DNA of 64,000 nt, taken from positions 92,842 to 156,841 of the forward strand of contig JBBIJY010000003.1 in NCBI GenBank assembly GCA_037445735.1, in the 5' to 3' direction. Positions 28,024 to 63,974 of this stretch are shown one piece after another (the stretch's first letter is position 1; the number at the start of each line of letters is the position of its first letter). The DNA comes from Armatimonadota bacterium. Lineage in GTDB: Bacteria; Armatimonadota; Fimbriimonadia; Fimbriimonadales; GBS-DC. A model generated the notes under the pieces. The model saw nothing but the letters and a program-made list of their open reading frames with translations. It did no database searches and was not told where the DNA came from. Both the position numbers and the translations under genes were made by a program.

Positions 28024-28665
28024 ATGCACCACCCATCCGAGTGCCACAACTGGACCGAAGCCGAATGGCTTCAGCAGCTGCAGCGGCGCGCCGCCCGACT
28101 CACCCGCTGCGCCGACGACGCTGCCGACCTCGCGCAGGACTGCCTCTGCGCCTTTGTGAACCACTTTGGCTGCTACCCGTGGGAGTGTGCCGACCCGCTC
28201 CACGCCTGGCGCTGGTGTTGCCTGAAGCTGCGGGCGCTTGCCTGCGACGCGCACCGCCACACCCAGCGCCATCCGTCGCTGTCGCTGGAGGAAGCGCCTG
28301 AAAGCCTTGTGTGCGTGGAGATGGCTGAACAGGTGCAGGGGGATGTGGACGGCGAGGCGTTTGTGGCGCAGTTGCCGCCGCGGTTGCGGGCGGTGGTGCA
28401 GTTGCGCTTGCAGGGCTTTTCGTGGGAAGAAATTGCGCGTCAGCTGAGGGTGAAAGCCAGCACTGTGCGCGGGTATCTGCCTGAGTTGCGAGCGCGTTTT
28501 GTGGCGTTTTTCGGGTATGACCCATCGAAACGGACTTTTGAATCGTTAATAGAGGTAGAGGGGACAGACAGCCCCTCGGTGGAAGTAGGAGGCGAAGGCG
28601 ATGAAAGTGATGGGAGTGATAAGCAAGGGTTTAGTGGCGACACAGGAAGCACGGGGGGGGGGTAA
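28024..28665 (+). CDS. ECF-type sigma-70 factor
   Basis: DAADLAQD region 2; LPPRLRAVVQLR..GFSWEEIARQLRVKASTVR region 4; acidic tail overlapping the next gene. Confidence 0.82.
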   Translation: MHHPSECHNWTEAEWLQQLQRRAARLTRCADDAADLAQDCLCAFVNHFGCYPWECADPLHAWRWCCLKLRALACDAHRHTQRHPSLSLEEAPESLVCVEMAEQVQGDVDGEAFVAQLPPRLRAVVQLRLQGFSWEEIARQLRVKASTVRGYLPELRARFVAFFGYDPSKRTFESLIEVEGTDSPSVEVGGEGDESDGSDKQGFSGDTGSTGGG

Positions 28666-30667
28666 ATCCCCTGCGGTTAGAAGTCGAGTATGCTGCTGGC
28701 TGTGGAAGGTGATCCGGGTGGCTTGCATTATCGGAGCCTGTCTGGCTTGCGGGATTGGTGGCTGGGCACAAAGTCGTTTGCAAGGCGTTCGGTGCGACAC
28801 AAAAGCTACACTGCAGGTGATGGGAGAGCGGACTCCCGATTGCGGTTTTCTGTTGGGTTGTCCCTACGAACATCATTACTGTAGTTCTTTTTGGGATCTC
28901 TGCAGGGGTCAAAGGAGCCGAACTGTCATACTTAATGCCAGCTATCTAACTTTAGGAGGTGGCTTAAGTGGTGGAGGCGATGATAGTTGGAGTGGAGGAG
29001 CTGCTTTGAATGCGAATTTCACTTTTTCGTTCACCTCGCCTTATCCTAACCTGCGTATAGAGGGCTATACCTATACACCCAAGCGAGCTTTGGGTTTTTT
29101 GTACTTTGTAGAGAGAGTTCATGCGGCATCATTTGCCGCTGCAAGTGCGAGATGCGGGCCAGACATTAACCAAGAAGATGGGTGCTGTGGTTCAAGCTCG
29201 GCATCGGCAAGGGTGGTATCAGCGTCCATCCAGACATCTTTGGCTTCCGCTTCCGTTTCGTCCGGTGCGAGTGCTTCGTGTAGCTGCAATTCCGAGTGCA
29301 TGGATTGTACACAAGGGGGTGGGGGTGAAAGCAGATGTGATCCATCTGACTGTAGGGGTAGGCGAGGCTACAGGGCGAATCGGGTGCATTTTGGTCGGAG
29401 CGAGTGGGTTAGTTATGAGGAAGCGATGACAGGTAGCATTTCGGTAGACGGTTCTTCAGTGGAGTGCGGAGGTGCGGGGTCAGGTGCTTTTGTTTCAGCG
29501 TATAGTGGTTTAGTTATCCAAGTTTGGCCTGACCCGCTGGGCGTGCCTGCGATAGGGGATAACGAGTATGCATGGACAGAAACTGTCCCTGCAGAACTGC
29601 GGATAGGTGCAGCGGCGATGGTTCACACCTGGGGATGGGCTAATCCTGACACGGCGTGGTTGGCGAGCGAGGTATCGTTTCGGACGGAGCCAGAGATACC
29701 GACGGACTACACCAAGCCGGGTATCCTGACGGTGGCGCGGGGTTCGTTGCTGGTGGCGCAGAGTGAGGTGGACGGGAATATGGAGGATGGCTTCTTAGTC
29801 TATAAGTCCGACAGGCTGCCGCCGAGGAATTCGGACTTTGGGAAGAAGCGAGTTCTGTTTGCGAGCAAGCAGGGGGAGGTGGATTACGCCGAGGCGGAGG
29901 TGTTCTATCCTACCGATGGAACAAACCATCCACAAGGTGGTCCGGTTAGCAAAAAGCCAGTAATAAGAGAGTGCAGTAGTGAGCTTTGTAGGCGTGAAGT
30001 GATGCCTGGTGTGTTCGCAAATATGTGTTTCGATGTTATTCCGTCATCAGAATTGTCACCAAATTGGTTATATTATTATATACAAGCTTATTCAGTTAGT
30101 GAATTAAGATGGGGAGGTTCACAACTTGGCGATCATCTGTATGGAATAACATGTCCATTCAGTCAAGATATAATTCTCTTTGATTCAGCCTCTCCGAAAC
30201 GCGGCTACTTGGACTTTCCACTCTTCGTTCTGCAGAATCGATCGGATAGTCAAGGTCGCACGCGACCACTAATTACATACTCAGGGGACAGACTCGAGAT
30301 GGTAAAAGGGATTCATAAGTTTATTGCTATTGTCGAACATGAGCGTACTCATCTTGATCTAGGGCGGTCAGGAGTAGACCAATTTTGTTGCTCAGACCCC
30401 ACCAATGATGGAGATCGTGATGGCTTATCCGATAGCTGGGAGGAACAGCATGGACTCGATCCCGGTACTCCTATCACAGCTCCACCGTTTCATGATAGTG
30501 AAGTACTGGCTTTCATTCGTCAGTATGGTAGGCTTTTACAAAATAAGGAGAAATGGAAGGACGATTGGGCACTTGATGGCTTGCAGATTGGCATACCTGA
30601 GCAGCCCTTTCCTTGGAAGTACTCGACCGCTAATCCGCGTGCGAATTATCTGACCGACATACCATAA
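28601..30667 (+). CDS. Large exported Cys-rich protein with an HExxH motif
   Basis: GGAGG RBS, extended signal peptide ending GWA|QS, Cys/Ser-rich N-half, VEHERTH, DGDRDGLSDSWEEQHGLDP Ca-binding-like motif. Confidence 0.75.
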   Translation: MKVMGVISKGLVATQEARGGGKSPAVRSRVCCWLWKVIRVACIIGACLACGIGGWAQSRLQGVRCDTKATLQVMGERTPDCGFLLGCPYEHHYCSSFWDLCRGQRSRTVILNASYLTLGGGLSGGGDDSWSGGAALNANFTFSFTSPYPNLRIEGYTYTPKRALGFLYFVERVHAASFAAASARCGPDINQEDGCCGSSSASARVVSASIQTSLASASVSSGASASCSCNSECMDCTQGGGGESRCDPSDCRGRRGYRANRVHFGRSEWVSYEEAMTGSISVDGSSVECGGAGSGAFVSAYSGLVIQVWPDPLGVPAIGDNEYAWTETVPAELRIGAAAMVHTWGWANPDTAWLASEVSFRTEPEIPTDYTKPGILTVARGSLLVAQSEVDGNMEDGFLVYKSDRLPPRNSDFGKKRVLFASKQGEVDYAEAEVFYPTDGTNHPQGGPVSKKPVIRECSSELCRREVMPGVFANMCFDVIPSSELSPNWLYYYIQAYSVSELRWGGSQLGDHLYGITCPFSQDIILFDSASPKRGYLDFPLFVLQNRSDSQGRTRPLITYSGDRLEMVKGIHKFIAIVEHERTHLDLGRSGVDQFCCSDPTNDGDRDGLSDSWEEQHGLDPGTPITAPPFHDSEVLAFIRQYGRLLQNKEKWKDDWALDGLQIGIPEQPFPWKYSTANPRANYLTDIP
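28653..28662. repeat. G10 homopolymer in the overlap of two genes
   Basis: ac-G10-taa. Confidence 0.9.
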
Positions 30668-30685
30668 AAATAGGAGGAGAAAGCA

Positions 30686-31714
30686 ATGCGACTGATGGTG
30701 GTTAGCGTCACGATAATGGGTAGCCTGATCGTTGGCGGATTGCTCTGTGGAGCTGTCGGCGGAAGCAGCCTGTGGTATAGCGATAAAGTAGCCCAAGAGC
30801 GGGAATTCTATTCCCTCATAGCCCGCGTGCGTACTATTGGTTTGGAGCGCGACAAAAAGCACGCAGCGTGGCTAATGGAACTATTGAAGCACCCTCCCAA
30901 TTTCACTTTCAAGTATCCTATTGGCACAGTCCCCGATGGTGGGCAGTTAGGTACTCCAGTCTGGCATCTTAAACTCGCTATTCTCGTCGCTCTTGGGCGA
31001 CTCGGTGACTCACAGGTGGTGTCGGAGCTGGAAGCACAGCGATATGCCCTACGGCAAGTGGGGCTTGAAGGTCAGCTGGATGTCACCATCGCCCGTATCC
31101 AGGCAGAGGCTTCAATTCCACATCCACGCTCCCTGTCTGAGTGCCAGCAAAAAATTAACCTTTTCTTGCAAGGCATAGGGTACAACTATGACACATGGCA
31201 AAGCAAACTGCGCACACAGTCTCCTGAACTTAAGGCGATATTGGCAATGCGCCAAGCCGTAGAAATGGCTTGCAATGCGTATACGGATGGTATTCTGGAA
31301 GCATTACTAGCGATTAATCATCTGCCACTCCAGCGTGATTATCCTTCAGCTCTGCGAGTGCGTTTATGCCAGCTAACACCTGAAGCGCGTTCAGCATGGT
31401 TGTTCGAGGCGCTCAAGCTGCGCCCAATCTTCAACACAGAGGCATTCTATGAGATTCAGGCGTTTGCAGATTGCGGTGCGGTATCGTGGAACTATCTGCT
31501 AAAACAGCTGCACTTGCGGTTAGCCGATCCTACATGGAAACCTGTTCAGGAATACCGACTCTGGCATTATATTCTACTGAGTTTCACGGACTCCCAGATA
31601 GCAGGTGTGCTGGTTCAGATGGGAAGACATCCCAGCCAAGAGGTTCAACAACTCGCTGGGGACATAAAGCGGCGTTTTGGTGGTTCGCCGATGGTATTTG
31701 CTTCTGACTGGTAG
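30686..31714 (+). CDS. Exported helical (HEAT-like) hypothetical protein, putative partner or immunity protein
   Basis: AGGAGG RBS, hydrophobic N-terminus, AILVALGRLGDSQVVSELE HEAT-like motif. Confidence 0.7.
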   Translation: MRLMVVSVTIMGSLIVGGLLCGAVGGSSLWYSDKVAQEREFYSLIARVRTIGLERDKKHAAWLMELLKHPPNFTFKYPIGTVPDGGQLGTPVWHLKLAILVALGRLGDSQVVSELEAQRYALRQVGLEGQLDVTIARIQAEASIPHPRSLSECQQKINLFLQGIGYNYDTWQSKLRTQSPELKAILAMRQAVEMACNAYTDGILEALLAINHLPLQRDYPSALRVRLCQLTPEARSAWLFEALKLRPIFNTEAFYEIQAFADCGAVSWNYLLKQLHLRLADPTWKPVQEYRLWHYILLSFTDSQIAGVLVQMGRHPSQEVQQLAGDIKRRFGGSPMVFASDW

Positions 31715-31803
31715 CCCAGGAATGTGCCTGGTGTGCTTCTGATCACGGTTGGGTTTGGTTGTCTGCTCTTACTCCTGAATGATTTCGGGCTTGAGGAACA
31801 GGG

Positions 31804-33453
31804 CGGCGGGACTACACCTACGATGCGTGGGGTCGGGTGCTGCGCCAGCAGGGATGCTGCGGGAGCGAGTCTGGCATAGAGGTGCAGGTGGTGTCGGCGG
31901 AGTACGACGCGGCGGGCAGGAAGCGGTTTGAGAAGGAGCGTCGGTCGGACGAGAGTGTCGTGCGCACGATTGAGTACACCTATGATGCGCTGGGACGGCT
32001 GCAAAGCGTGGGCGATTATCGGGGCAGTGTGGTGTACAGTTATGAGCGGGGCACGGGGCGGCTGCAGCGAGAGGATTACCCGAACGGGAGTTTTGTGGCG
32101 TATACTTACTATGGCGCGGACAATCCGTCGCAGGTGGGGCATGTGTGGAAGGTGGAACACAAGCGGGGGGATGGGAGTTTGTTGATCGGGTACGAGTACA
32201 CTTATGACCTGCTGGGTCGGGTGGAGCAGAGCGTGGAGCGTCCGAGTGGGGACACGACGGTTTACAGCTACACGCCTGCGGGTCGGTTAGGGAGCGAGGT
32301 GCGCACGGGTCAGGTGGCGTACAGGCGGGTGTATCAGTACAACCTGGATGGCAGTCGGCAGTGGGTGGAGCGGGAGGATGTAGTGAACGGGACGCACTGG
32401 GATGTCTACAGTTATGACGCGGTGTCGGGTCGTCTGGCGAGCGTGCTGGATGTGTGGAGTGGCGAGGAGAATAATTTTGTGTGGAACCCGGAGGGCACGC
32501 TGGCGCGGTGGAGCACTAATCAGCCGAACAGTTATGCACGGGTGTTTGGGTATGATGAGGAAGGGCGTCTAACGCGGATAGAGCGGGATTATGGGAACGG
32601 CAACCTGCAGGTGGCATATGAGTATGGGTACAATAGTGATGGTGTTCGGGTGTGGAAGCGGGATGGTCTGGCTCGGCAGGAGTATCGGTATGTATGTCGG
32701 ATAGGCTGTGGGGGCGTGCCGATGCGGGTGTATAGTCGGGCGATGGAATCGACCGCCACATGGCAAAGTCGGGAGGATTATTTGGAGACGCCGACCGTGA
32801 TAGGGTATCAAAACAGTATGGGCAGCTTTGGGCACTATGTATGGGTAGCGGGACACTGGCTGGCGGACTGGGGTGCTGGGGGTGGCTGGGCGTCTTATCA
32901 GGATCAGTTTGGCGTGGCGGTAGGTGATTTGTATTTTCCTGCTGCTGTCAAGCCTGCGCCCGAGTATTTAGGGCAGGATGAGGGGGTGTCAAATGACCCA
33001 TGTATGGAAGGATATATTCCTGTGTACGCCCTCTTTTTGCAGCAAAAACAAAAGCCTCAGCCAAAGCCCAAGCCTCCTACAACGCCATTCCGCGAGTGTT
33101 TGGAGGCGTGCGCAAAGCTAAGAAACGATCTTGAGAACCAATGCAGGAAAGATCATGCAGATTGTGTGAAAAAATGTGAAGGCGATCCTAAGTGCCTGCG
33201 CAAGTGCGATTTGGCTCTCAGAGGCTGTTTGCAGAATGCAAGTGGGATCGCTGCAGGGTGTGCCTCTCTGTGTTCCAATCAACATCTTGGTGAGCCAATA
33301 AAAATCCCTGTCCCTATAATAGGGGAAATTCCAGTACCAACCGGACCATATAACGACTGGTGCAGGAGCCAGCCCGAGGATCCACGCAAAAAATATCCAG
33401 GCTTGCCAACACCGGGAGGTGGATGGCCGGATTACGATAAAAAGAAACGATGA
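31804..33453 (+). pseudogene. 5'-truncated Rhs/YD-repeat cassette with Cys-ladder C-terminus
   Basis: YTYDAWGRV, YTYDALGRL, YTYDLLGRV, FGYDEEGRL repeats; homology begins just after an in-frame TGA (31792); no clear RBS before GTG 31837. Confidence 0.82.
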
Positions 33454-33462
33454 TTAGGAGGC

Positions 33463-34152
33463 ATGGCCATGAGAATGCAGAGCCTGTTTCTACTTGTGAT
33501 GTGTGTTTATGGTGCGATTATAGCGGGGCAAGAGCCAGTCACCGATCGAACGGTTCTTGAGACGACATCAGCTCGGGTGAAGATTCCGCCTGATTCGAAG
33601 AAAGAAGGTGAGAATAGAAGAAAATTGTCTGAACCTACCTTGCATGCCTTTGTGGAAGGGAAAGTGTATCCTGTCCCCGAGGCAGATAGGGCACAGGCAG
33701 AGGTAGGAAAGAAAACGCCAGCGAGGGTAGTTCTATCAGAGTATATTGTTCCTAAGGAAGTCTCGCCATCAGTTGTAGCAGATCATCTTGCTAATTCTCT
33801 CACGCTCGCCGTAATTTTCGCCGATTCGCTTTCGTTTGGGCTTGCTGGCGAAAAACTTCCCCAGTATCAGATCACACCTTTACCAACAGGGGCATCAGGT
33901 ACGGCTCAATATCAGGTTGTTAGGGTTGTCTCGTCTTCACCGCATCAAGAACAAGTGGTTGGGTGGGTAGCTCTGTATTGGCGTTCAGAGCGGGTAGTTG
34001 GTCTGTACTTGTTGCTTCCCAGGTCTAAGGAGGTGGACGCGAGACAGTGGGAGAAAGAATGGAGCAAAATTTTTTCGTCTTTTGAATGGAAGAATGGAGA
34101 AACCGAAAGGTTAGGTATAATTCCGACCTGTTGGGAACGCGCTGGGGTATAA
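33463..34152 (+). CDS. Exported hypothetical protein, putative immunity protein
   Basis: AGGAGG RBS right after the Rhs stop; signal-peptide-like N-terminus. Confidence 0.7.
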   Translation: MAMRMQSLFLLVMCVYGAIIAGQEPVTDRTVLETTSARVKIPPDSKKEGENRRKLSEPTLHAFVEGKVYPVPEADRAQAEVGKKTPARVVLSEYIVPKEVSPSVVADHLANSLTLAVIFADSLSFGLAGEKLPQYQITPLPTGASGTAQYQVVRVVSSSPHQEQVVGWVALYWRSERVVGLYLLLPRSKEVDARQWEKEWSKIFSSFEWKNGETERLGIIPTCWERAGV

Positions 34153-34186
34153 TGCGAACTGGCGGTTTGCGCACAGTGGGGGTACT

Positions 34187-34654
34187 TTGCTGATGATGGG
34201 TCAATCGGGCGAGCCGTGGGGTTATTATCCGCAGGACAGCAACGGTCTGGCGGTGCAGAGTGAGGTGCCGGCGGCGTGTGTTTGTGTGGTGTATTGGCAG
34301 AGCCTGTGTGCGCCGATTGCGGATGGAGGGTGTGCAGTAGATGATTGTGCCGTATCATTGATGGTGTACGACTTGCCCCTTTGCTCTGGTCAGAAGAAAC
34401 CGAAAAAGCCATGCCCTTGTAATTCAAAGGAACAAAAAGGATGCGAGCGGTTCTGCAAGTCCCTTGGGGGTGCTCCATCAGGCTGTATCCATGATGGCAA
34501 TCAACTCATATGCTCCTGCGTTTTTCCTCCTGATAAGCCTTGCAACCCGGCTCAAAAGAAACAGTGCGAGAAACTTTGTCAATCGCAAGGTGGAATTATG
34601 GCGAGCTGTTTCGTCGATAATGGGAAAAAGATAGTTTGTGACTGTATATACTGA
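34187..34654 (+). CDS. Orphan Rhs-end cassette with tandem defensin-like Cys domains
   Basis: WGYYPQDSNGLAV..PAA resembles WASYQDQFGVAV..PAA of the upstream Rhs; two C-x7-C-x3-C-x9-C-x8/9-C-x-C units; no good start. Confidence 0.7.
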   Translation: MLMMGQSGEPWGYYPQDSNGLAVQSEVPAACVCVVYWQSLCAPIADGGCAVDDCAVSLMVYDLPLCSGQKKPKKPCPCNSKEQKGCERFCKSLGGAPSGCIHDGNQLICSCVFPPDKPCNPAQKKQCEKLCQSQGGIMASCFVDNGKKIVCDCIY

Positions 34655-34664
34655 GGATTACGAT

Positions 34665-35021
34665 ATGAGAAGGTATAGAGGCTTGTTGGGGGTTGTTTCT
34701 CTGTTGATACTGCTTGCCTTTTGTTCATGGTGGTGGATGAAACTGCCTGTGAGCAAGAGGCATGCTCCTGTGTTTCAGCTACTGCCTGTTTCCATTCCGA
34801 TAGGGCATTCGAATTGGCTTACTATCAGCGACGGCGGGGTGTATGTTGTAAGGGAGACCGTTGTTGGGCAAACCTTCTGCTGGGCGGTTGAGAAGAAGCC
34901 AAGTGCCCACACCAAAGGTAGGGATACCTCTGTACACAGTGTACATCCTAATTCCCGTTCGAGACCAATTCAATTAGGGATACAGAAACGGTATGAGCTG
35001 CGTGAGGTCATCTCATGGTAA
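34665..35021 (+). CDS. Membrane-anchored hypothetical protein (possibly truncated immunity gene)
   Basis: GAGG RBS overlapping the previous stop; MRRYR followed by a TM helix. Confidence 0.55.
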   Translation: MRRYRGLLGVVSLLILLAFCSWWWMKLPVSKRHAPVFQLLPVSIPIGHSNWLTISDGGVYVVRETVVGQTFCWAVEKKPSAHTKGRDTSVHSVHPNSRSRPIQLGIQKRYELREVISW

Positions 35022-35241
35022 CAAAATGTCGCCCTCAGGTTTAGAGGAGCAACCCGAGCAGATATAGGGTGTTTTGGCTCTATCTATTGCGAAGAGCGGC
35101 TGCGGAGGAGATATAATGCATGCGGAGGGCATGCTATGCAAGGCAAGCAAGGAAACCGACCCTGCCGGGCAAGCCGAATCGGGACTCCTTGCAATAGAGC
35201 AGCAAAAGCTCTACCGCCCTGCCCATAGGAGGGAAAAGACT

Positions 35242-35718
35242 ATGATAAGACAATCTGGGGTAATTTATCAGACGCAGGATCAACCTGTTCGGCTGATCGC
35301 TTGGGTTGAACATCCCCAAGTACGCGAAGGCGCCTCTATCGAGGTAACAATCGCGCTGCAAAATCGTTCCCAATCGCAGCTCTATCTCGATCTATTTCCT
35401 CATCTCACTCCTTTTGCCGATGATCCCCACTTTCCTTTCACAATAGCGGTTCGGCACGGTGAACAGCCTGTCCCGTTCAAGTGCATCCTGATTAGGCGCA
35501 AAGTGGTTTCAGATGCCGACCTGTCCCCGATAGCCAGTGGGATGTTAGCGGGTTTTAGCTTTGATGTGCGGAGGGTAGGCTATGATGAGTTGCCCCGCGG
35601 TTCGTATCAAATTGTGCTATGGTATGACTCGGCACGCTTGAGTCGGGCGATGTTTAAGGCGAAGCGGTTGTGGCGGGGACGCACCTCCAGGCTGGAGATA
35701 CCAATAGAGATTATCTGA
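35242..35718 (+). CDS. Hypothetical Ig-like beta protein
   Basis: AGGAGGG RBS; IEVTIALQNRS...LPRGSYQIVLWY beta-sandwich pattern. Confidence 0.65.
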   Translation: MIRQSGVIYQTQDQPVRLIAWVEHPQVREGASIEVTIALQNRSQSQLYLDLFPHLTPFADDPHFPFTIAVRHGEQPVPFKCILIRRKVVSDADLSPIASGMLAGFSFDVRRVGYDELPRGSYQIVLWYDSARLSRAMFKAKRLWRGRTSRLEIPIEII

Positions 35719-61016: not shown

Positions 61017-61112
61017 AAAAGCCTATGCGCGAGTTCGGTTGAAAAGGAACGGCTTCAGCTGCTCTGTTGCAAAGATACCGGACTGCCTGCGCTGTACCGC
61101 TCCCGCAGGGCG

Positions 61113-61342
61113 CCTATCGGGTCTCGCTGCAGCCAGCGGGCGGTGCGAGGGTCATATTCACGGGCGCCGACATGATACAACCCCGTGAACGGGATAAACT
61201 CGTACCCATACGCCCCGTTCCAGGTGAAGGGGTTCGGCGTGTCGCCTGCCTGCTCGATCAGATTGCCCCAGCTATCATAAGTGTAGTGGTCGGTTATTAT
61301 CCCGTTCGGCGCAACCAGCGCCCGCACATGTCCCAACAACCT
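61113..61342 (-). pseudogene. Rhs core fragment, truncated after DPIG
   Basis: LGHVRAL..YTYDSWG..NPFTWNGAYGY..LYHVGAREYDPRTARWLQRDPIG, then homology is lost. Confidence 0.85.
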
Positions 61343-61792
61343 CTACCTGTTGTCCAAAAACACTTTCAGCCACTCAGTCAACTCCTCACCTGCTCGCTTC
61401 GGCACTCGGTACCACCAGAAGCGTTCACGAGGCTCAAAAACAGGGTATGAAATCGGGATTGGAACTTCAATAGTTGCTCGCACAAACCGCTCATCCATTG
61501 GAGCCACCAACTCAGCATACGCTTTTCGCCCCGAGTCTGTGAGCAGTTGCATCACCTCATCAATCTCATCACGCCACATTATGTCATTTTCATAGTCATA
61601 AATAGTAAGATTATATCCACGCTCGATGTGCGCGACAACATCAGACCAGTTTTCGAGCAGGTCGAGCAGATAGGACTCAGGCTCTCCTGAAGGCGCAACC
61701 TCATTTCCCTCTAAATCCACCCATTGTTTTTGGGACACCCAAGAACGAATGCGCTCCCTATCTTCTGGGGTAAGGGTCAGCTTGTATCGCAT
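61343..61792 (-). CDS. Putative immunity protein
   Basis: Acidic 149-aa ORF starting 11 nt after an Rhs toxin stop; AT-richer DNA. Confidence 0.72.
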   Translation of the reverse strand: MRYKLTLTPEDRERIRSWVSQKQWVDLEGNEVAPSGEPESYLLDLLENWSDVVAHIERGYNLTIYDYENDIMWRDEIDEVMQLLTDSGRKAYAELVAPMDERFVRATIEVPIPISYPVFEPRERFWWYRVPKRAGEELTEWLKVFLDNR

Positions 61793-61803
61793 GTTTATCC
61801 CGC

Positions 61804-62595
61804 CTATCGCTTGTCTTTGTCCAGTTGTCTCTGCCAGTACCTTCGCGCCTTCGCTACATCCACAGCTCCTCTGCGGGGATTATACCCTGGATTGAAGTAG
61901 GTACGGACTGTCGAACAATCATTCGCCACAACAGCAAATTCTCCCGTCCTCGGATCGAAGAAAAGAATATCGCCATTTCCTCGGATATGAGCCTCAATCC
62001 CCTCGCGACCAATGAACGATCGCGCCCTCATGAGATAGTCTTCTGCACTTGTCGCCCCAACCTCACGACCATGCCTTGCGAAATGGTCAAGGAGCTTCTC
62101 TTTGCTCGCAAAACGCAGGTTTGGGAGATGTATTACAGCGCGCGCTGTCCCCTTTGCTACCGTTATCAGTGCCCGACAATCCACCGCACCCCGAACCAGA
62201 CGCGCCCCGACCATCCCCGCACGGGCAGCACCCACCACCGTCCGACTTGACCCTAAAGTCGCCACATCCACAACCAAACTCACGGCGCCCACGCCCACGC
62301 GCACCCAGTCGCCCTCCGCAATTCCTTTGCCAATATCCCACAAAGCACCGACCACAGGTATGAAGCCAATCCCGATGTCCAACAGGGTGCCTGCATCGGG
62401 ACCTAAGCCTGAGGGGTCAGCGTGATTGAGGGGGTCATTCCCACAATACCGATACAGGTTCGGGCCGCCGGAGGCGGCGTCTATCGGGTCGCGCTGCAGC
62501 CAGCGGGCGGTGCGGGGGTCATACGCGCGAGCGCCGACATGGTACAAGCCAACCTCCGGTATCCACTCATACCCATACGCCCCGTTCCAGGTGAA
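61804..62595 (-). CDS. Orphan Rhs C-terminal toxin cassette (HFxxHG, probable RNase)
   Basis: Rhs core end ..PLNHADPSGL then LLDHFARHG...YL..A...GD..FDP.T.EF.V...VRTYF.P; no proper start codon (reading frame open upstream of TTG 62547). Confidence 0.82.
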   Translation of the reverse strand, partial: FTWNGAYGYEWIPEVGLYHVGARAYDPRTARWLQRDPIDAASGGPNLYRYCGNDPLNHADPSGLGPDAGTLLDIGIGFIPVVGALWDIGKGIAEGDWVRVGVGAVSLVVDVATLGSSRTVVGAARAGMVGARLVRGAVDCRALITVAKGTARAVIHLPNLRFASKEKLLDHFARHGREVGATSAEDYLMRARSFIGREGIEAHIRGNGDILFFDPRTGEFAVVANDCSTVRTYFNPGYNPRRGAVDVAKARRYWQRQLDKDKR

Positions 62596-62629
62596 AGCGA
62601 ATCGATCTATATTCGCTTCTTCCTCTACA

Positions 62630-63184
62630 CTACGCGGAAATAGGCGATATCGTTCCCGTAGAAAGGTCTATGGCAACAGTTGGCGAGTCCATCATTTCTA
62701 TAATCAGTTGATCATCAGCTATCCTATAGTCAATGATAATATCTTTGTCATACTGCCATAAGTACCGACCATCACAGGACAAGGCTATTACGCCGATTTC
62801 ATAAAGAACTAGAATCACTGACCTGCCTGGAATGGTTAAAAACCTGTAGAAAGGGGCTACCAAATCCACTGTAAACTGCACTTTCATATCCACGATGCTA
62901 AAAGCAACTACCTCGCGGTTAAAACCAAACATTAACATATCGCTTTCCAACAACAAGAGCATCTGCGGAGTCAACCCATACCCTTCCGAGCAAATTCCTA
63001 TTCCAAAACGAGTTCCTTTTGATCCTAAGTAGAGGGTAGCGGTGTAAAACTCCACCCCTAACTCTGCACCCTCGCCTAATAGGATATTACCCGCCGTACA
63101 ATCAGTACGCAGGTAGCGAACCATTTGCTCACGGCTATCCCATCGGTTGACCTCTATCAAGTGTTCTCCAAAAGCGATATGCAT
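62630..63184 (-). CDS. Putative immunity protein
   Basis: ATG 1 nt after the toxin TAA; AT-rich. Confidence 0.72.
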   Translation of the reverse strand: MHIAFGEHLIEVNRWDSREQMVRYLRTDCTAGNILLGEGAELGVEFYTATLYLGSKGTRFGIGICSEGYGLTPQMLLLLESDMLMFGFNREVVAFSIVDMKVQFTVDLVAPFYRFLTIPGRSVILVLYEIGVIALSCDGRYLWQYDKDIIIDYRIADDQLIIEMMDSPTVAIDLSTGTISPISA

Positions 63185-63185
63185 T

Positions 63186-63974
63186 TTATCGCCCTCCTCC
63201 GAGGATATACACTGTGAGCAACTTGTTTCCTTCCCAGATGGTCACCAGCTTACAGCCTCCCTTTGGTCCCATCAAGAGAGACTCGCGAATCGTGCGACCA
63301 TTCCGAACCTCAACGATATTATTTGGATCATTGAGTACCATTGTCAGGTGTTGCTCTATATATTCACGATTAGCGGGAGTATCATTCAGTCCTATTCTCT
63401 GGAGTTGTCGCAGCATATCCCTACTTCTCTGGATATTGTGTACAGATCCAGCCGCTTTTCCAAAAATGAAGTCAAGTTTCCTTCCTAACTCAGGTATTTT
63501 TAGCCCTGCCAATCTGGCAGCTTCATCAAAGGGAACAGCAAACAGTAAAAGTGAGACCAACGCAAGCACCTTCGTTCTCAAATCTGGTGCTTCACATGCA
63601 TTTGCTACATCATTAAGCGGGTTAACTGCTAACCAAGCCTCCCCACCTACCTTCATGGGCTGGAGAACTCGTTTATCTACCTCACCAATTGCCCGCATGT
63701 AGGTTTTCTTATAAAAGAGCGGACGTCCTTCTTCATCAATCGGATTACCATAAAGATCGTCCTCCTGCAAACCAGACGGATCAACCGACATTAAAGGGTT
63801 GTTCAAGCAATACAGGTAAAGGTTCGCATTGCCTCCGCCGATACCTATCGGGTCTCTTTGCAGCCAGCGGGCGGTGCGGGGGTCATACACACGGGCGCCG
63901 ACATGGTACAACCCTGTCTCAGGTATCCACTCATACCCATACGCGCCGTTCCAGGTAAACAGATTGCGGGTCAT
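63186..63974 (-). CDS. Orphan Rhs C-terminal toxin cassette
   Basis: FTWNGAYGY..YDPRTARWLQRDPIG..NPLMSVDPSGL followed by a distinct tip (KLDFIFGK..HNIQRS..RESLLMGP.G). Confidence 0.82.
   Translation of the reverse strand: MTRNLFTWNGAYGYEWIPETGLYHVGARVYDPRTARWLQRDPIGIGGGNANLYLYCLNNPLMSVDPSGLQEDDLYGNPIDEEGRPLFYKKTYMRAIGEVDKRVLQPMKVGGEAWLAVNPLNDVANACEAPDLRTKVLALVSLLLFAVPFDEAARLAGLKIPELGRKLDFIFGKAAGSVHNIQRSRDMLRQLQRIGLNDTPANREYIEQHLTMVLNDPNNIVEVRNGRTIRESLLMGPKGGCKLVTIWEGNKLLTVYILGGGR

Follow-up and report, generated by a model that had tools for sequence, protein, structure and literature searches.

What kind of genetic element is an AT-rich run of co-oriented genes in which Rhs-like cassettes end in cysteine-rich tips and are followed by genes for exported or membrane-anchored proteins? 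The question is raised by positions 28024-35718 (termed the island) of a 64,000-nucleotide (nt) stretch of contig JBBIJY010000003.1 from an Armatimonadota bacterium (assembly GCA_037445735.1); this whole stretch is referred to as the window. A first reading of the DNA (the sequence-only reading) had proposed a candidate new polymorphic system, in which swappable YD-repeat cassettes with disulfide-rich tips and exported partners stand behind an extracytoplasmic function (ECF) sigma factor. Comparison with related genomes supports that reading in part, but not as a self-contained new system. Both YD cassettes are orphan copies, truncated at the N-terminus, of genes from a YD/Rhs polymorphic-toxin family of the Armatimonadota, a lineage-specific Rhs variant with an organization that has already been described (PMC3150448). 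The island as a whole is probably a storage array of toxin/immunity cassettes, made up of two orphans with their partners, a leftover gene (p214), a separate HExxH pair and a sigma-like gene.

Truncated copies of an Armatimonadota Rhs family

Matches to the YD family are present in 27 of 41 genomes of relatives, which also contain numerous fragment arrays. In G002, G012, G001 and G010, the frames are open over 1,049 to 1,189 amino acids (aa), and the window protein aligns to their C-terminal part. The first cassette, orphan 1 (31837-33453, plus strand), is a truncated YD/Rhs gene of 538 aa, the frame of which is open from 31795. Set against full-length relatives of 1,042 to 1,170 aa, it corresponds to residues from about 620 on and has neither the signal-peptide-like start nor the approximately 620 N-terminal residues. 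The second cassette, orphan 2 (34127-34654, plus strand; open reading frame [ORF] 34187-34654, 155 aa), consists of a core-end fragment and its tip; it starts inside the core end, with its "M" at the Leu position of a conserved LLMMG. Because a start region and leader are missing from both cassettes, neither would constitute a working delivery unit.

The full layout can be seen in the complete genome G012, in which a sigma-like gene, a 1,158-aa family gene and a multi-transmembrane (TM) partner are followed by two 5ʹ-truncated orphans, each with a downstream gene. The 1,158-aa protein starts with a hydrophobic leader and contains six RHS repeats; its match to DUF6531 is weak, as it is in four of five N-termini overall. 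The leader, LLLLHLDIAPA[VI]AS, is found in three of four complete genes, and the N-terminus of a full-length gene in the window's own genome (C1:2220-1657) has kept the conserved hydrophobic leader. Fragments in relatives frequently contain in-frame stops, TAG being the commonest by eye from the match table, and one G012 orphan has a stop codon at the position of a relative's Gln. The stops in these fragments and in a copy on contig C24 of the window's genome are read as decay, not recoding.

In the window's own genome, the YD gene has paralogues on contigs C24 (82% identity over residues 1-382) and C4 (70% over 1-363), and C4 bears a further, short fragment. The two longer copies run off their contig ends, and these ends share their last 55 nt, which indicates an assembly break in a repeat. 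Homology between the window copy and the C4 and C24 paralogues begins only at 31800/31801, and the sequence upstream of this point is unrelated. A 51-codon ORF (31724-31879, plus strand, frame 2) lies 10 nt after the p342 gene, has a hydrophobic start (VPGVLLITVGFGCLLLLL..) and enters the YD repeat out of frame. Fusion of this ORF to the YD frame was considered and rejected, as the two are in different frames and the ORF is made of sequence from the 3' end of the preceding module. Only paralogue-type contigs of sequencing runs X2 and X3 lack one base at 31828.

The family's membership in the Rhs group is evident from its central repeats. Orphan 1 matches RHS_repeat (PF05593; E 2.9e-10) and YD_repeat_2x (TIGR01643; 28.8 bits), with PF05593 matches of up to E 2.2e-40 in full-length relatives, and phmmer searches of the PDB recover the Rhs effectors Tse15 (E 5e-11) and Tre23 over the central repeats only. 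The sequence-only reading had called the core end noncanonical, and this is borne out. The Rhs core model TIGR03696 has no match in the window YD protein or in the G012 full-length protein, and hhalign gives a probability of 0.1% for the family core end versus the canonical core ends of the same genome. Genome-wide, TIGR03696 at E ≤ 1 finds 15 places, 13 over the cut-off and none in the three family copies; three of the 15 are at the far end of this window and provide an internal positive control. At that end (61076-63974, minus strand), canonical Rhs C-terminal orphan modules with ..YDPRTARWLQRDPI..DPSGL, variable ends and small downstream ORFs are found, so the genome carries a second, canonical Rhs family.

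An invariant QEYRYxCRIGCGG..R.Y.R segment stands in place of ..DPxGL and is followed by one of two recurring core ends. Class A has the form WLAGHWL..Y.D.FG..VP(E/D)YL, and class B the form GEPxGYYPxDSNGLAVQS..CxCP..C.PL..GGC. In orphan 1, CRIGCGG begins at nt 32695 and is followed by a class-A end (..YQDQFGVAV..PAAV..PEYL) and then a Lys/Pro linker; orphan 2 retains only the last part of a class-B end (LLMMG..GEPWGYYPQDSNGLAVQSE..CxC..GGC), likewise followed by a Lys/Pro linker. The translations contain the core-end strings WASYQDQFGVAV..PAA and WGYYPQDSNGLAV..PAA, the linkers QKQKPQPKPKPP and QKKPKKP, and the string CRIGCGGVPMRVY. A core-end profile matches 17 of 301 sampled Armatimonadota genomes (E ≤ 1e-8), and of 22 loci with the core-end pattern, 21 are labeled Armatimonadota, Fimbriimonadales or bacterium HR15 and one is a Dehalococcoidia metagenome-assembled genome. 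Neither TssC nor PAAR was found in the 99.2% complete genome of the window, and delivery by a type VI secretion system (T6SS) was rejected for this reason.

Cysteine-rich tips, partner genes and cassette replacement

Tips were collected from ORFs with a recognizable core end in the window, on two further contigs of its genome and at 23 loci of relatives, and duplicates and tips shorter than 60 aa were dropped before counting. Behind the conserved core, 32 distinct tips form 19 similarity groups, which agrees with the polymorphism proposed from the window alone. Three groups span both core-end classes; two of them are real, and the third, which is also the largest group of all, is an artifact in which a single weak link due to Cys bias has merged unrelated tips. 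The tips are also rich in cysteine, as had been claimed: their Cys content is 1.1 to 14.2%, with a median of approximately 9% and a value of at least 3% in 31 of 32, versus 1.3% in the long ORFs of contigs C1 and C2. A Lys/Pro-rich 12-residue stretch (at least seven K/P) precedes 11 of the 32 tips.

A downstream partner, defined as an ORF within −60 to +120 nt of the tip, accompanies 28 of the 32 tips. In the 378 pairwise comparisons, seven pairs are alike in both tip and partner, eight in tip only, none in partner only and 363 in neither. All seven partner-similar pairs thus lie inside tip-similar pairs, and the expected co-variation of downstream genes with tips is seen. None of 2,000 shuffles of the partner labels reaches seven, a significance that is overstated because kin are not independent. 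A near miss involves tip 1 of the window and the tip at locus L030, which are 39-43% identical and have partners with 26% identity over 153 aa (E 4.8e-4).

Tip 2, that of orphan 2, is the 89-aa end (34385-34651) of the 155-aa ORF, in which 19 residues (12.3%) are Cys, and consists of two tandem six-Cys units (34412-34525 and 34535-34651) with the framework C-x7-C-x3-C-x9-C-x8/9-C-x-C. All 12 framework cysteines are invariant in 13 sequences that are 26-70% identical. When the genome's 14,706 six-frame ORFs are searched with a strict regular expression, a single one contains the framework twice; among the 32 tips, three do. A word-index protein search with tip 2 returned two matches, and a tip-2 profile run against 1.84 billion representatives found 10 proteins at E ≤ 0.001, eight of which are C-termini of this Rhs family with three kinds of core end. 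Two proteins outside the family, P0010 (826 aa) and P0013 (187 aa), match the tip profile weakly; one has 11 repeats of CDxYCxxLNGxxSYCKxWQxPAVC with Thr-rich linkers, and the other, which looks secreted, has four CEKRGGVFV..YACVFP repeats.

The cysteine-stabilized alpha/beta framework of defensins is given, in the part of the source available, as Cys1...Cys2-X3-Cys3...Cys4...Cys5-X1-Cys6 (PMC5234102), and tip 2 shares with defensins and scorpion toxins a six-Cys framework, present twice, at a marginal profile likeness. Pfam Toxin_3 matches tip 2 at E 7.8e-4, with contributions from both units; it matches three of six members, four of 13 at E ≤ 0.05, and has no match among 17 further proteins or tips of the family, many of them Cys-rich. 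Profile searches of the PDB bring up the scorpion toxins Lqh3 (E 0.26) and Ts3 (E 1.6) and the fungal defensin eurocin (E 1.5), all nonsignificant, in alignments that rest on the CxxxC and CxC cysteines. Several results weigh against a toxin-like fold. The Toxin_3 score of 20.0 bits is below the curated cut-off of 21.5, and the best-ranked matches of both PDB searches are unrelated proteins, the toxin matches standing at E 0.26-1.6. When the six-frame genome is searched with Toxin_3, three other places score better than the tip, whose match (12.2 bits, E 0.66) stands among chance-level ones; at E ≤ 1, seven of 14 control genomes also match, and G001, which bears four such tips, has no Toxin_3 match at E ≤ 0.1. 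The chance that tip 2 adopts a cysteine-stabilized alpha/beta fold is judged to be about even.

Downstream of tip 2 is p127 (34638-35021, plus strand; 127 aa), a protein with a basic N-terminus, a single TM-like segment and an ectodomain of approximately 85 aa. Small TM proteins resembling p127 at 29-35% identity directly follow the closest tandem tips (L044, L066, L067 and L068), so that tip and partner are adjacent in five of five close loci. Among the 41 genomes, the tip is found in three and the p127 family in two, each time adjoining the closest tip; p127 never occurs without the tip. More distant tandem tips precede other small TM proteins. This distribution makes p127 a candidate cognate immunity protein of tip 2.

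Tip 1, at approximately 33034-33450, has 12 Cys and four CxxxC motifs. It gives no BLAST alignment with tip 2 at E ≤ 10 and has no profile likeness to the tip-2 repeat. The only homologue found is the L030 tip, and a word-index protein search returned tip 1 itself alone; the L030 relative matches Vicilin_N at E 0.056, a mere lead to a CxxxC helical-hairpin type. The gene that follows, p229 (33463-34152, plus strand), encodes 229 aa with a signal-peptide-like N-terminus and is the candidate cognate immunity protein of tip 1. No Pfam family matches p229, and the protein Atlas yields unnamed clusters, with weak leads to DUF4946 and PsbP.

Other tips are of different kinds. The tip of the main gene on C4 contains NWCGPGHPP..CCFAHDDCY and matches Phospholip_A2_1 at E 7.2e-4 (20.5 bits, below the cut-off of 32.1). 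By eye, further kinds include tips with a HEMAH motif, Gly/Cys-rich hydrophobic tips with a multi-TM partner and tips with DKLVHCVAAC; the other Cys-rich tips have no meaningful Pfam match. The earlier picture of small disulfide-rich peptides therefore fits in respect of cysteine content and fails where tips are secreted-phospholipase A2 (PLA2)-like, carry an HExxH motif or are hydrophobic. At L038:8839-9738, and also in the second orphan of G012, a hydrophobic Cys-rich tip ends in a six-Cys C..CxxxC..C..CxC stretch (CRPSVIVDCTLHCLGRGLIGYCVFGKCVC). As this tip illustrates, the six-Cys framework may occur in other tip types.

Cassette replacement between sister genomes is directly visible at this chromosomal site. 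In G002, which belongs to the same genus, both flanks of the island are 96-97% identical to those of the window. On the right side, G002 has a class-B core-end fragment that is 90% identical to window 34127-34335, followed by a HEMAH tip and a 178-aa gene. DNA identity breaks after 34335 and resumes at window 35614 (95.6%); the intervening window segment (34335-35614) comprises the tandem tip, p127 and the 5ʹ part of p214, and its place is taken in G002 by the HEMAH tip and its partner. Closely related genomes thus exchange tips at the point where the conserved core ends, and the cassettes are swappable, as had been supposed. Contigs of related strains in run X2 share 34127-34262 with the window and then diverge. 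The left half of the G002 locus is a degraded counterpart of that of the island, in which remains of the sigma gene, part of an HExxH gene, a homologue of p342 and pieces of YD genes can be recognized.

The same comparison bears on p214 (35074-35718, plus strand; 214 aa, or about 158 aa from a likely start at Met57, nt 35242). The p214 protein is 50%, 45% and 27% identical to the products of genes directly after HEMAH tips in G002 (L065), L068 and G001 (L043), that is, after three of three such tips. Metagenome locus L068 has a tandem tip, then a p127-like gene, an orphan with a HEMAH tip and lastly a p214-like gene. From this order, p214 is best read as an orphan immunity-type gene that would have remained without its HExxH-motif tip. 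From about position 4455 of L064 (G002:C11:75800-85800), the YD fragments are followed by genes syntenic with contig C4 of the window's genome, such as that for phosphoglycerate kinase, and C4 itself ends in another Rhs copy. Either Rhs copies have mediated a chromosomal rearrangement between these close genomes, or the assembly from metagenome data has produced a chimera.

Upstream genes, composition and assembly of the island

All eight co-oriented ORFs are present on the plus strand, and the description of an AT-richer island is accurate for every ORF and motif. GC (guanine plus cytosine) content is 0.530 over 28024-35718, versus 0.629 in the remaining window and 0.622 in the genome. The sigma-like gene, at 0.631, is genome-like, which places the beginning of the AT-rich part at about 28.6 kb, with the HExxH gene. 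The HExxH protein, p342, p229 and p127 each have a hydrophobic segment near the N-terminus; the YD protein, p214 and the product of the 155-aa ORF have none. For the six ORFs besides the sigma-like and YD genes, Pfam and NCBIfam hold no family, the sole exception being a sub-threshold TSP3 repeat in the HExxH protein. No tRNA, flanking direct repeats or Rfam family was found at the island, and no plasmid relatives of the core end or orphan 2 were found.

The arrangement does not depend on this assembly alone, as contigs built by another assembler from run X1 cover 29846-31830, 32715-34236 and 34207-35327 without differences and at an even depth of 14.6-19.9; run X1 may be the source sample, so that the reads are possibly the same as those of this assembly. 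The first of these contigs reaches only 30 nt beyond the breakpoint at 31800/31801, 1 short of a 31-nt bridging rule, and loose ends at 31801 among the run X1 contigs carry the paralogue's upstream sequence.

The first gene of the island (28024-28665, plus strand) encodes a divergent ECF-type sigma-like protein of 213 aa with 10 Cys. It matches Sigma70_r4_2 at 36.9 bits, over the cut-off of 25.7, and falls below the cut-offs for Sigma70_r2 (21.3 versus 24) and TIGR02937 (37.9 versus 42.9); PADLOC reports only a weak helix-turn-helix match, on this protein, and by eye no anti-sigma gene was recognized. Seven full-length copies with at least 48% identity were found (G000, G003, G010, G011, G017 and two in G009). 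For five of these, a co-oriented gene no more than 1.5 kb downstream belongs to the Rhs family (G003, G010 and G017) or encodes an HExxH protein (G000 and the second G009 copy), and a different sigma-like gene stands before the G012 Rhs gene. In runs X2 and X3, the segment 28079-28612 recurs at 95-99% identity with unrelated sequence on both sides, which suggests that the sigma gene behaves as a portable head for varied downstream genes. The link between sigma genes and toxin modules is recurrent, not universal, and any regulatory meaning is inferred.

The next two genes form a unit of their own. The HExxH protein (28601-30667, plus strand; 688 aa, 26 Cys) has a hydrophobic segment at residue 30 and an HExxH motif at residue 580 (approximately nt 30338-30352), followed by a TSP3-like Asp-rich stretch; motif and stretch are kept in five of five sequences that span the region. 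It has no Pfam or NCBIfam family, its family profile has no PDB relative at E ≤ 1, and its C-terminus gave no usable protein Atlas match and only itself in a word-index search. Its features point to what is probably an exported zinc-peptidase-like protein. Directly downstream is p342 (30686-31714, plus strand), a 342-aa protein with a hydrophobic N-terminus and no Pfam family. Homologues of the HExxH protein are present in nine of the 41 genomes and those of p342 in eight, and p342-like genes lie directly downstream of HExxH homologues in G001:C1, G002:C11, G009:C64, G012:C1 and the window genome's own C23. Often these genes occur as two to three diverged copies that alternate with HExxH fragments. 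The p342 protein is a candidate immunity or inhibitor protein.

The sequence-only reading had listed both genes in one island with the YD cassettes. In relatives, however, the HExxH and p342 genes recur as a pair of their own, separate from the YD cassettes and their partners, and this second pair also has arrays of fragments. At the junction (31756-31800), a motif of approximately 45 nt, conceivably a recombination site, a terminator or another element, adjoins the homology breakpoint. The motif ends both HExxH/342-aa modules (window 31756-31798 and C23:40604-40562; 91% over 43 nt) and stands directly before the breakpoint, which indicates that the truncated Rhs copy was joined straight to the end of the HExxH module.

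Proposed mechanism, rival readings and known systems

Armatimonadota are diderm. A full-length family protein would consist of a signal-peptide-like start, a weak DUF6531-like N-domain, the YD shell, the CRIGCGG core end and a tip. Such proteins may be exported by Sec and fold in the oxidizing envelope, with the shell carrying the tip. In the window's genome, C20:22352-23356 encodes VKOR and thioredoxin-like (DsbA-type) domains in one 382-aa frame, a candidate extracytoplasmic disulfide-forming enzyme. The tips, namely tandem six-Cys (possibly defensin/scorpion-toxin), four-CxxxC helical, secreted-PLA2-like, HExxH and hydrophobic types, would act on the envelope of competing relatives, and the partners, most of them membrane-anchored or exported, would neutralize them as immunity proteins, either at the membrane or within the periplasm. 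The orphans of the window are probably not delivered; they may serve as a recombination reservoir, and their partner genes may give immunity. The sigma-like factor may drive transcription of adjacent toxin modules.

A number of observations count against this reading. The main genes of the window's own genome are broken by the assembly, and the C24 copy has an in-frame TAG (C24:36822-36824). Promoter-like and terminator-like sites in the island are at chance level, in a promoter scan for generic sigma-70 sites that does not cover ECF promoters. Two of the seven sigma-like copies have no family Rhs or HExxH gene after them, and the main genes at G001:C18 and G002:C7 have no sigma-like gene upstream. 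Eight tip-similar pairs lack detectable partner similarity. A crude hydropathy rule, which gave at least one visible false negative, finds a hydrophobic N-terminus in 17 of 28 partners, for which the proposal that partners carry signal peptides or TM segments can stand; it fails for the remaining 11, including the p214 family, and extracytoplasmic action therefore does not suit every pair. The signal-peptide assignments come from hydropathy and visual inspection only.

Rival readings take the same observations in other directions. Should the YD fragments be dead debris, that is, decaying pseudogene remnants that are open by chance and followed by genes possibly still useful, the missing start region and leader of both fragments would be explained, as would the stops in relatives' fragments, in the C24 copy and at the Gln position of the G012 orphan, and the degraded left half of the island in G002. 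Yet the fragments are open over 538 and 155 codons, the 12 tip-2 cysteines are kept in homologues of 26-70% identity, and tip and partner remain adjacent at all five close loci. Moreover, published orphan modules of CDI (contact-dependent inhibition) and Rhs systems work once joined to a main gene, and expression of their immunity genes is on record (PMC3150448). Decay of this kind is accordingly improbable. An error of assembly, by which mis-joined repeats in a metagenome-assembled genome created the truncated copy and the cassette order, could draw on the paralogues, which break contigs and end at C4 and C24 in the same 55 nt, and on the G002 contig, which passes from YD fragments into synteny with a different contig of the window's genome. 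The run X1 contigs are nevertheless identical at depths of 14.6-19.9, though possibly from the same reads and with the breakpoint passed by 30 nt, and the corresponding site in G002 independently has part of an HExxH gene, a p342 homologue and YD fragments arranged as in the window, which leaves an artifact barely credible.

It is also conceivable that the system is not interbacterial at all, the long proteins being variable surface or adhesion proteins (with teneurin-like recognition) or weapons against eukaryotic grazers and the downstream genes encoding chaperones, receptors or unrelated products. The scorpion-toxin-like and PLA2-like folds are best known from animal venoms, and some partners have no export signal. 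Strict co-variation and adjacency of tip and partner, orphan arrays and a leftover partner after a swap are hallmarks of toxin and immunity genes, however, and a weapon aimed at eukaryotes needs no cognate immunity gene for each tip; this alternative is very unlikely. The preferred reading of the island as a storage array can be extended, tentatively and with more doubt than confidence, to the family as a whole. In this extension, an Armatimonadota branch of Rhs proteins would have been rebuilt for oxidative folding outside the cytoplasm, with a Sec-type leader, a cysteine-bearing CRIGCGG core end in exchange for the aspartyl-protease DPxGL core, no T6SS and a venom-like disulfide cargo (the tandem defensin-like unit and the PLA2-like domain), each with an ecto-immunity protein, usually membrane-anchored.

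Much of this organization has precedents. An Rhs body with a variable tip, an immunity gene and orphans is already known, and the family resembles canonical Rhs systems (enterobacterial Rhs, Tse15 and Tre23) in its YD/RHS repeats, conserved body, variable tip, downstream cognate gene, orphan arrays and tip exchange. It differs from them in having no TIGR03696 or PxxxxDPxGL but an invariant CRIGCGG with two recurring core ends, a signal-peptide-like start rather than linkage to PAAR or VgrG, and Cys-rich tips. Bacillus subtilis WapA is reportedly a Sec-exported YD-repeat polymorphic toxin, and familiar WapA tips are nucleases with cytoplasmic immunity proteins. Unlike WapA, the present family has disulfide-type tips, mostly exported or membrane-anchored partners and Armatimonadota producers; as in WapA-type toxins of gram-positive bacteria, a polymorphic YD-repeat toxin would be exported without a T6SS, in the part of the source available (PMC12704120). 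CDI/Rhs loci likewise contain 5ʹ-truncated orphan ("silent") modules, and tip and immunity genes are exchanged between strains with homologous flanks, in the portion of the source at hand (PMC3150448).

Envelope-acting tips, too, have been described. In its available part, PMC3482391 lists Tox-PLA2, and a Sec signal peptide with RHS repeats as a known trafficking mode; in that same part, "defensin", "disulfide" and "cysteine-rich" do not occur. The C4 PLA2-like tip is akin to Tox-PLA2 and other envelope-acting tips with exported immunity (Zhang et al. 2012; the LXG lipid II toxin), with the difference that here the whole family appears devoted to Cys-rich tips. Known bacterial defensins, in the accessible part of a survey, are small stand-alone secreted peptides of Proteobacteria, Acidobacteria and Actinobacteria, and the words Rhs, polymorphic, tandem and immunity are absent from that part (PMC11561630). 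The present case differs from bacterial defensins in being a tandem C-terminal Rhs domain with a dedicated downstream membrane protein. The literature covered, to which supplementary files do not belong, contained nothing that joins Armatimonadota or Fimbriimonadales with Rhs, Rhs with defensin, or ECF sigma factors with Rhs regulation. What sets the present family apart is the replaced core end, the family-wide Cys-rich tips, the tandem six-Cys tip with its membrane partner and the recurrent sigma-like neighbor; the defensin-type nature of the cargo is an unproven proposal.

The family thus adds an Rhs-like group from a little-studied, mostly uncultured phylum, in which a YD shell has a different C-terminal closure and apparently operates without a T6SS. 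This closure and the absent T6SS raise the questions of how the tip is released, there being no DPxGL protease motif, and how it is delivered. The G002 replacement, between flanks that are 96-97% identical, is a clean natural example of tip and immunity turnover. The tips constitute a natural library of small disulfide-rich proteins, each with a candidate neutralizing partner, and this library may be of use for finding new envelope targets and immunity to defensin-type peptides. If the tandem unit truly has a cysteine-stabilized alpha/beta fold, bacterial defensins would be linked to polymorphic toxin systems, a connection that word searches of the literature covered did not turn up. Were the family indeed rebuilt for oxidative folding, with a defensin-like cargo, no cognate immunity protein of such a peptide would have been known before p127, and the folds that appear later in the defensins and venoms of eukaryotes would have a bacterial reservoir in polymorphic toxin cassettes.

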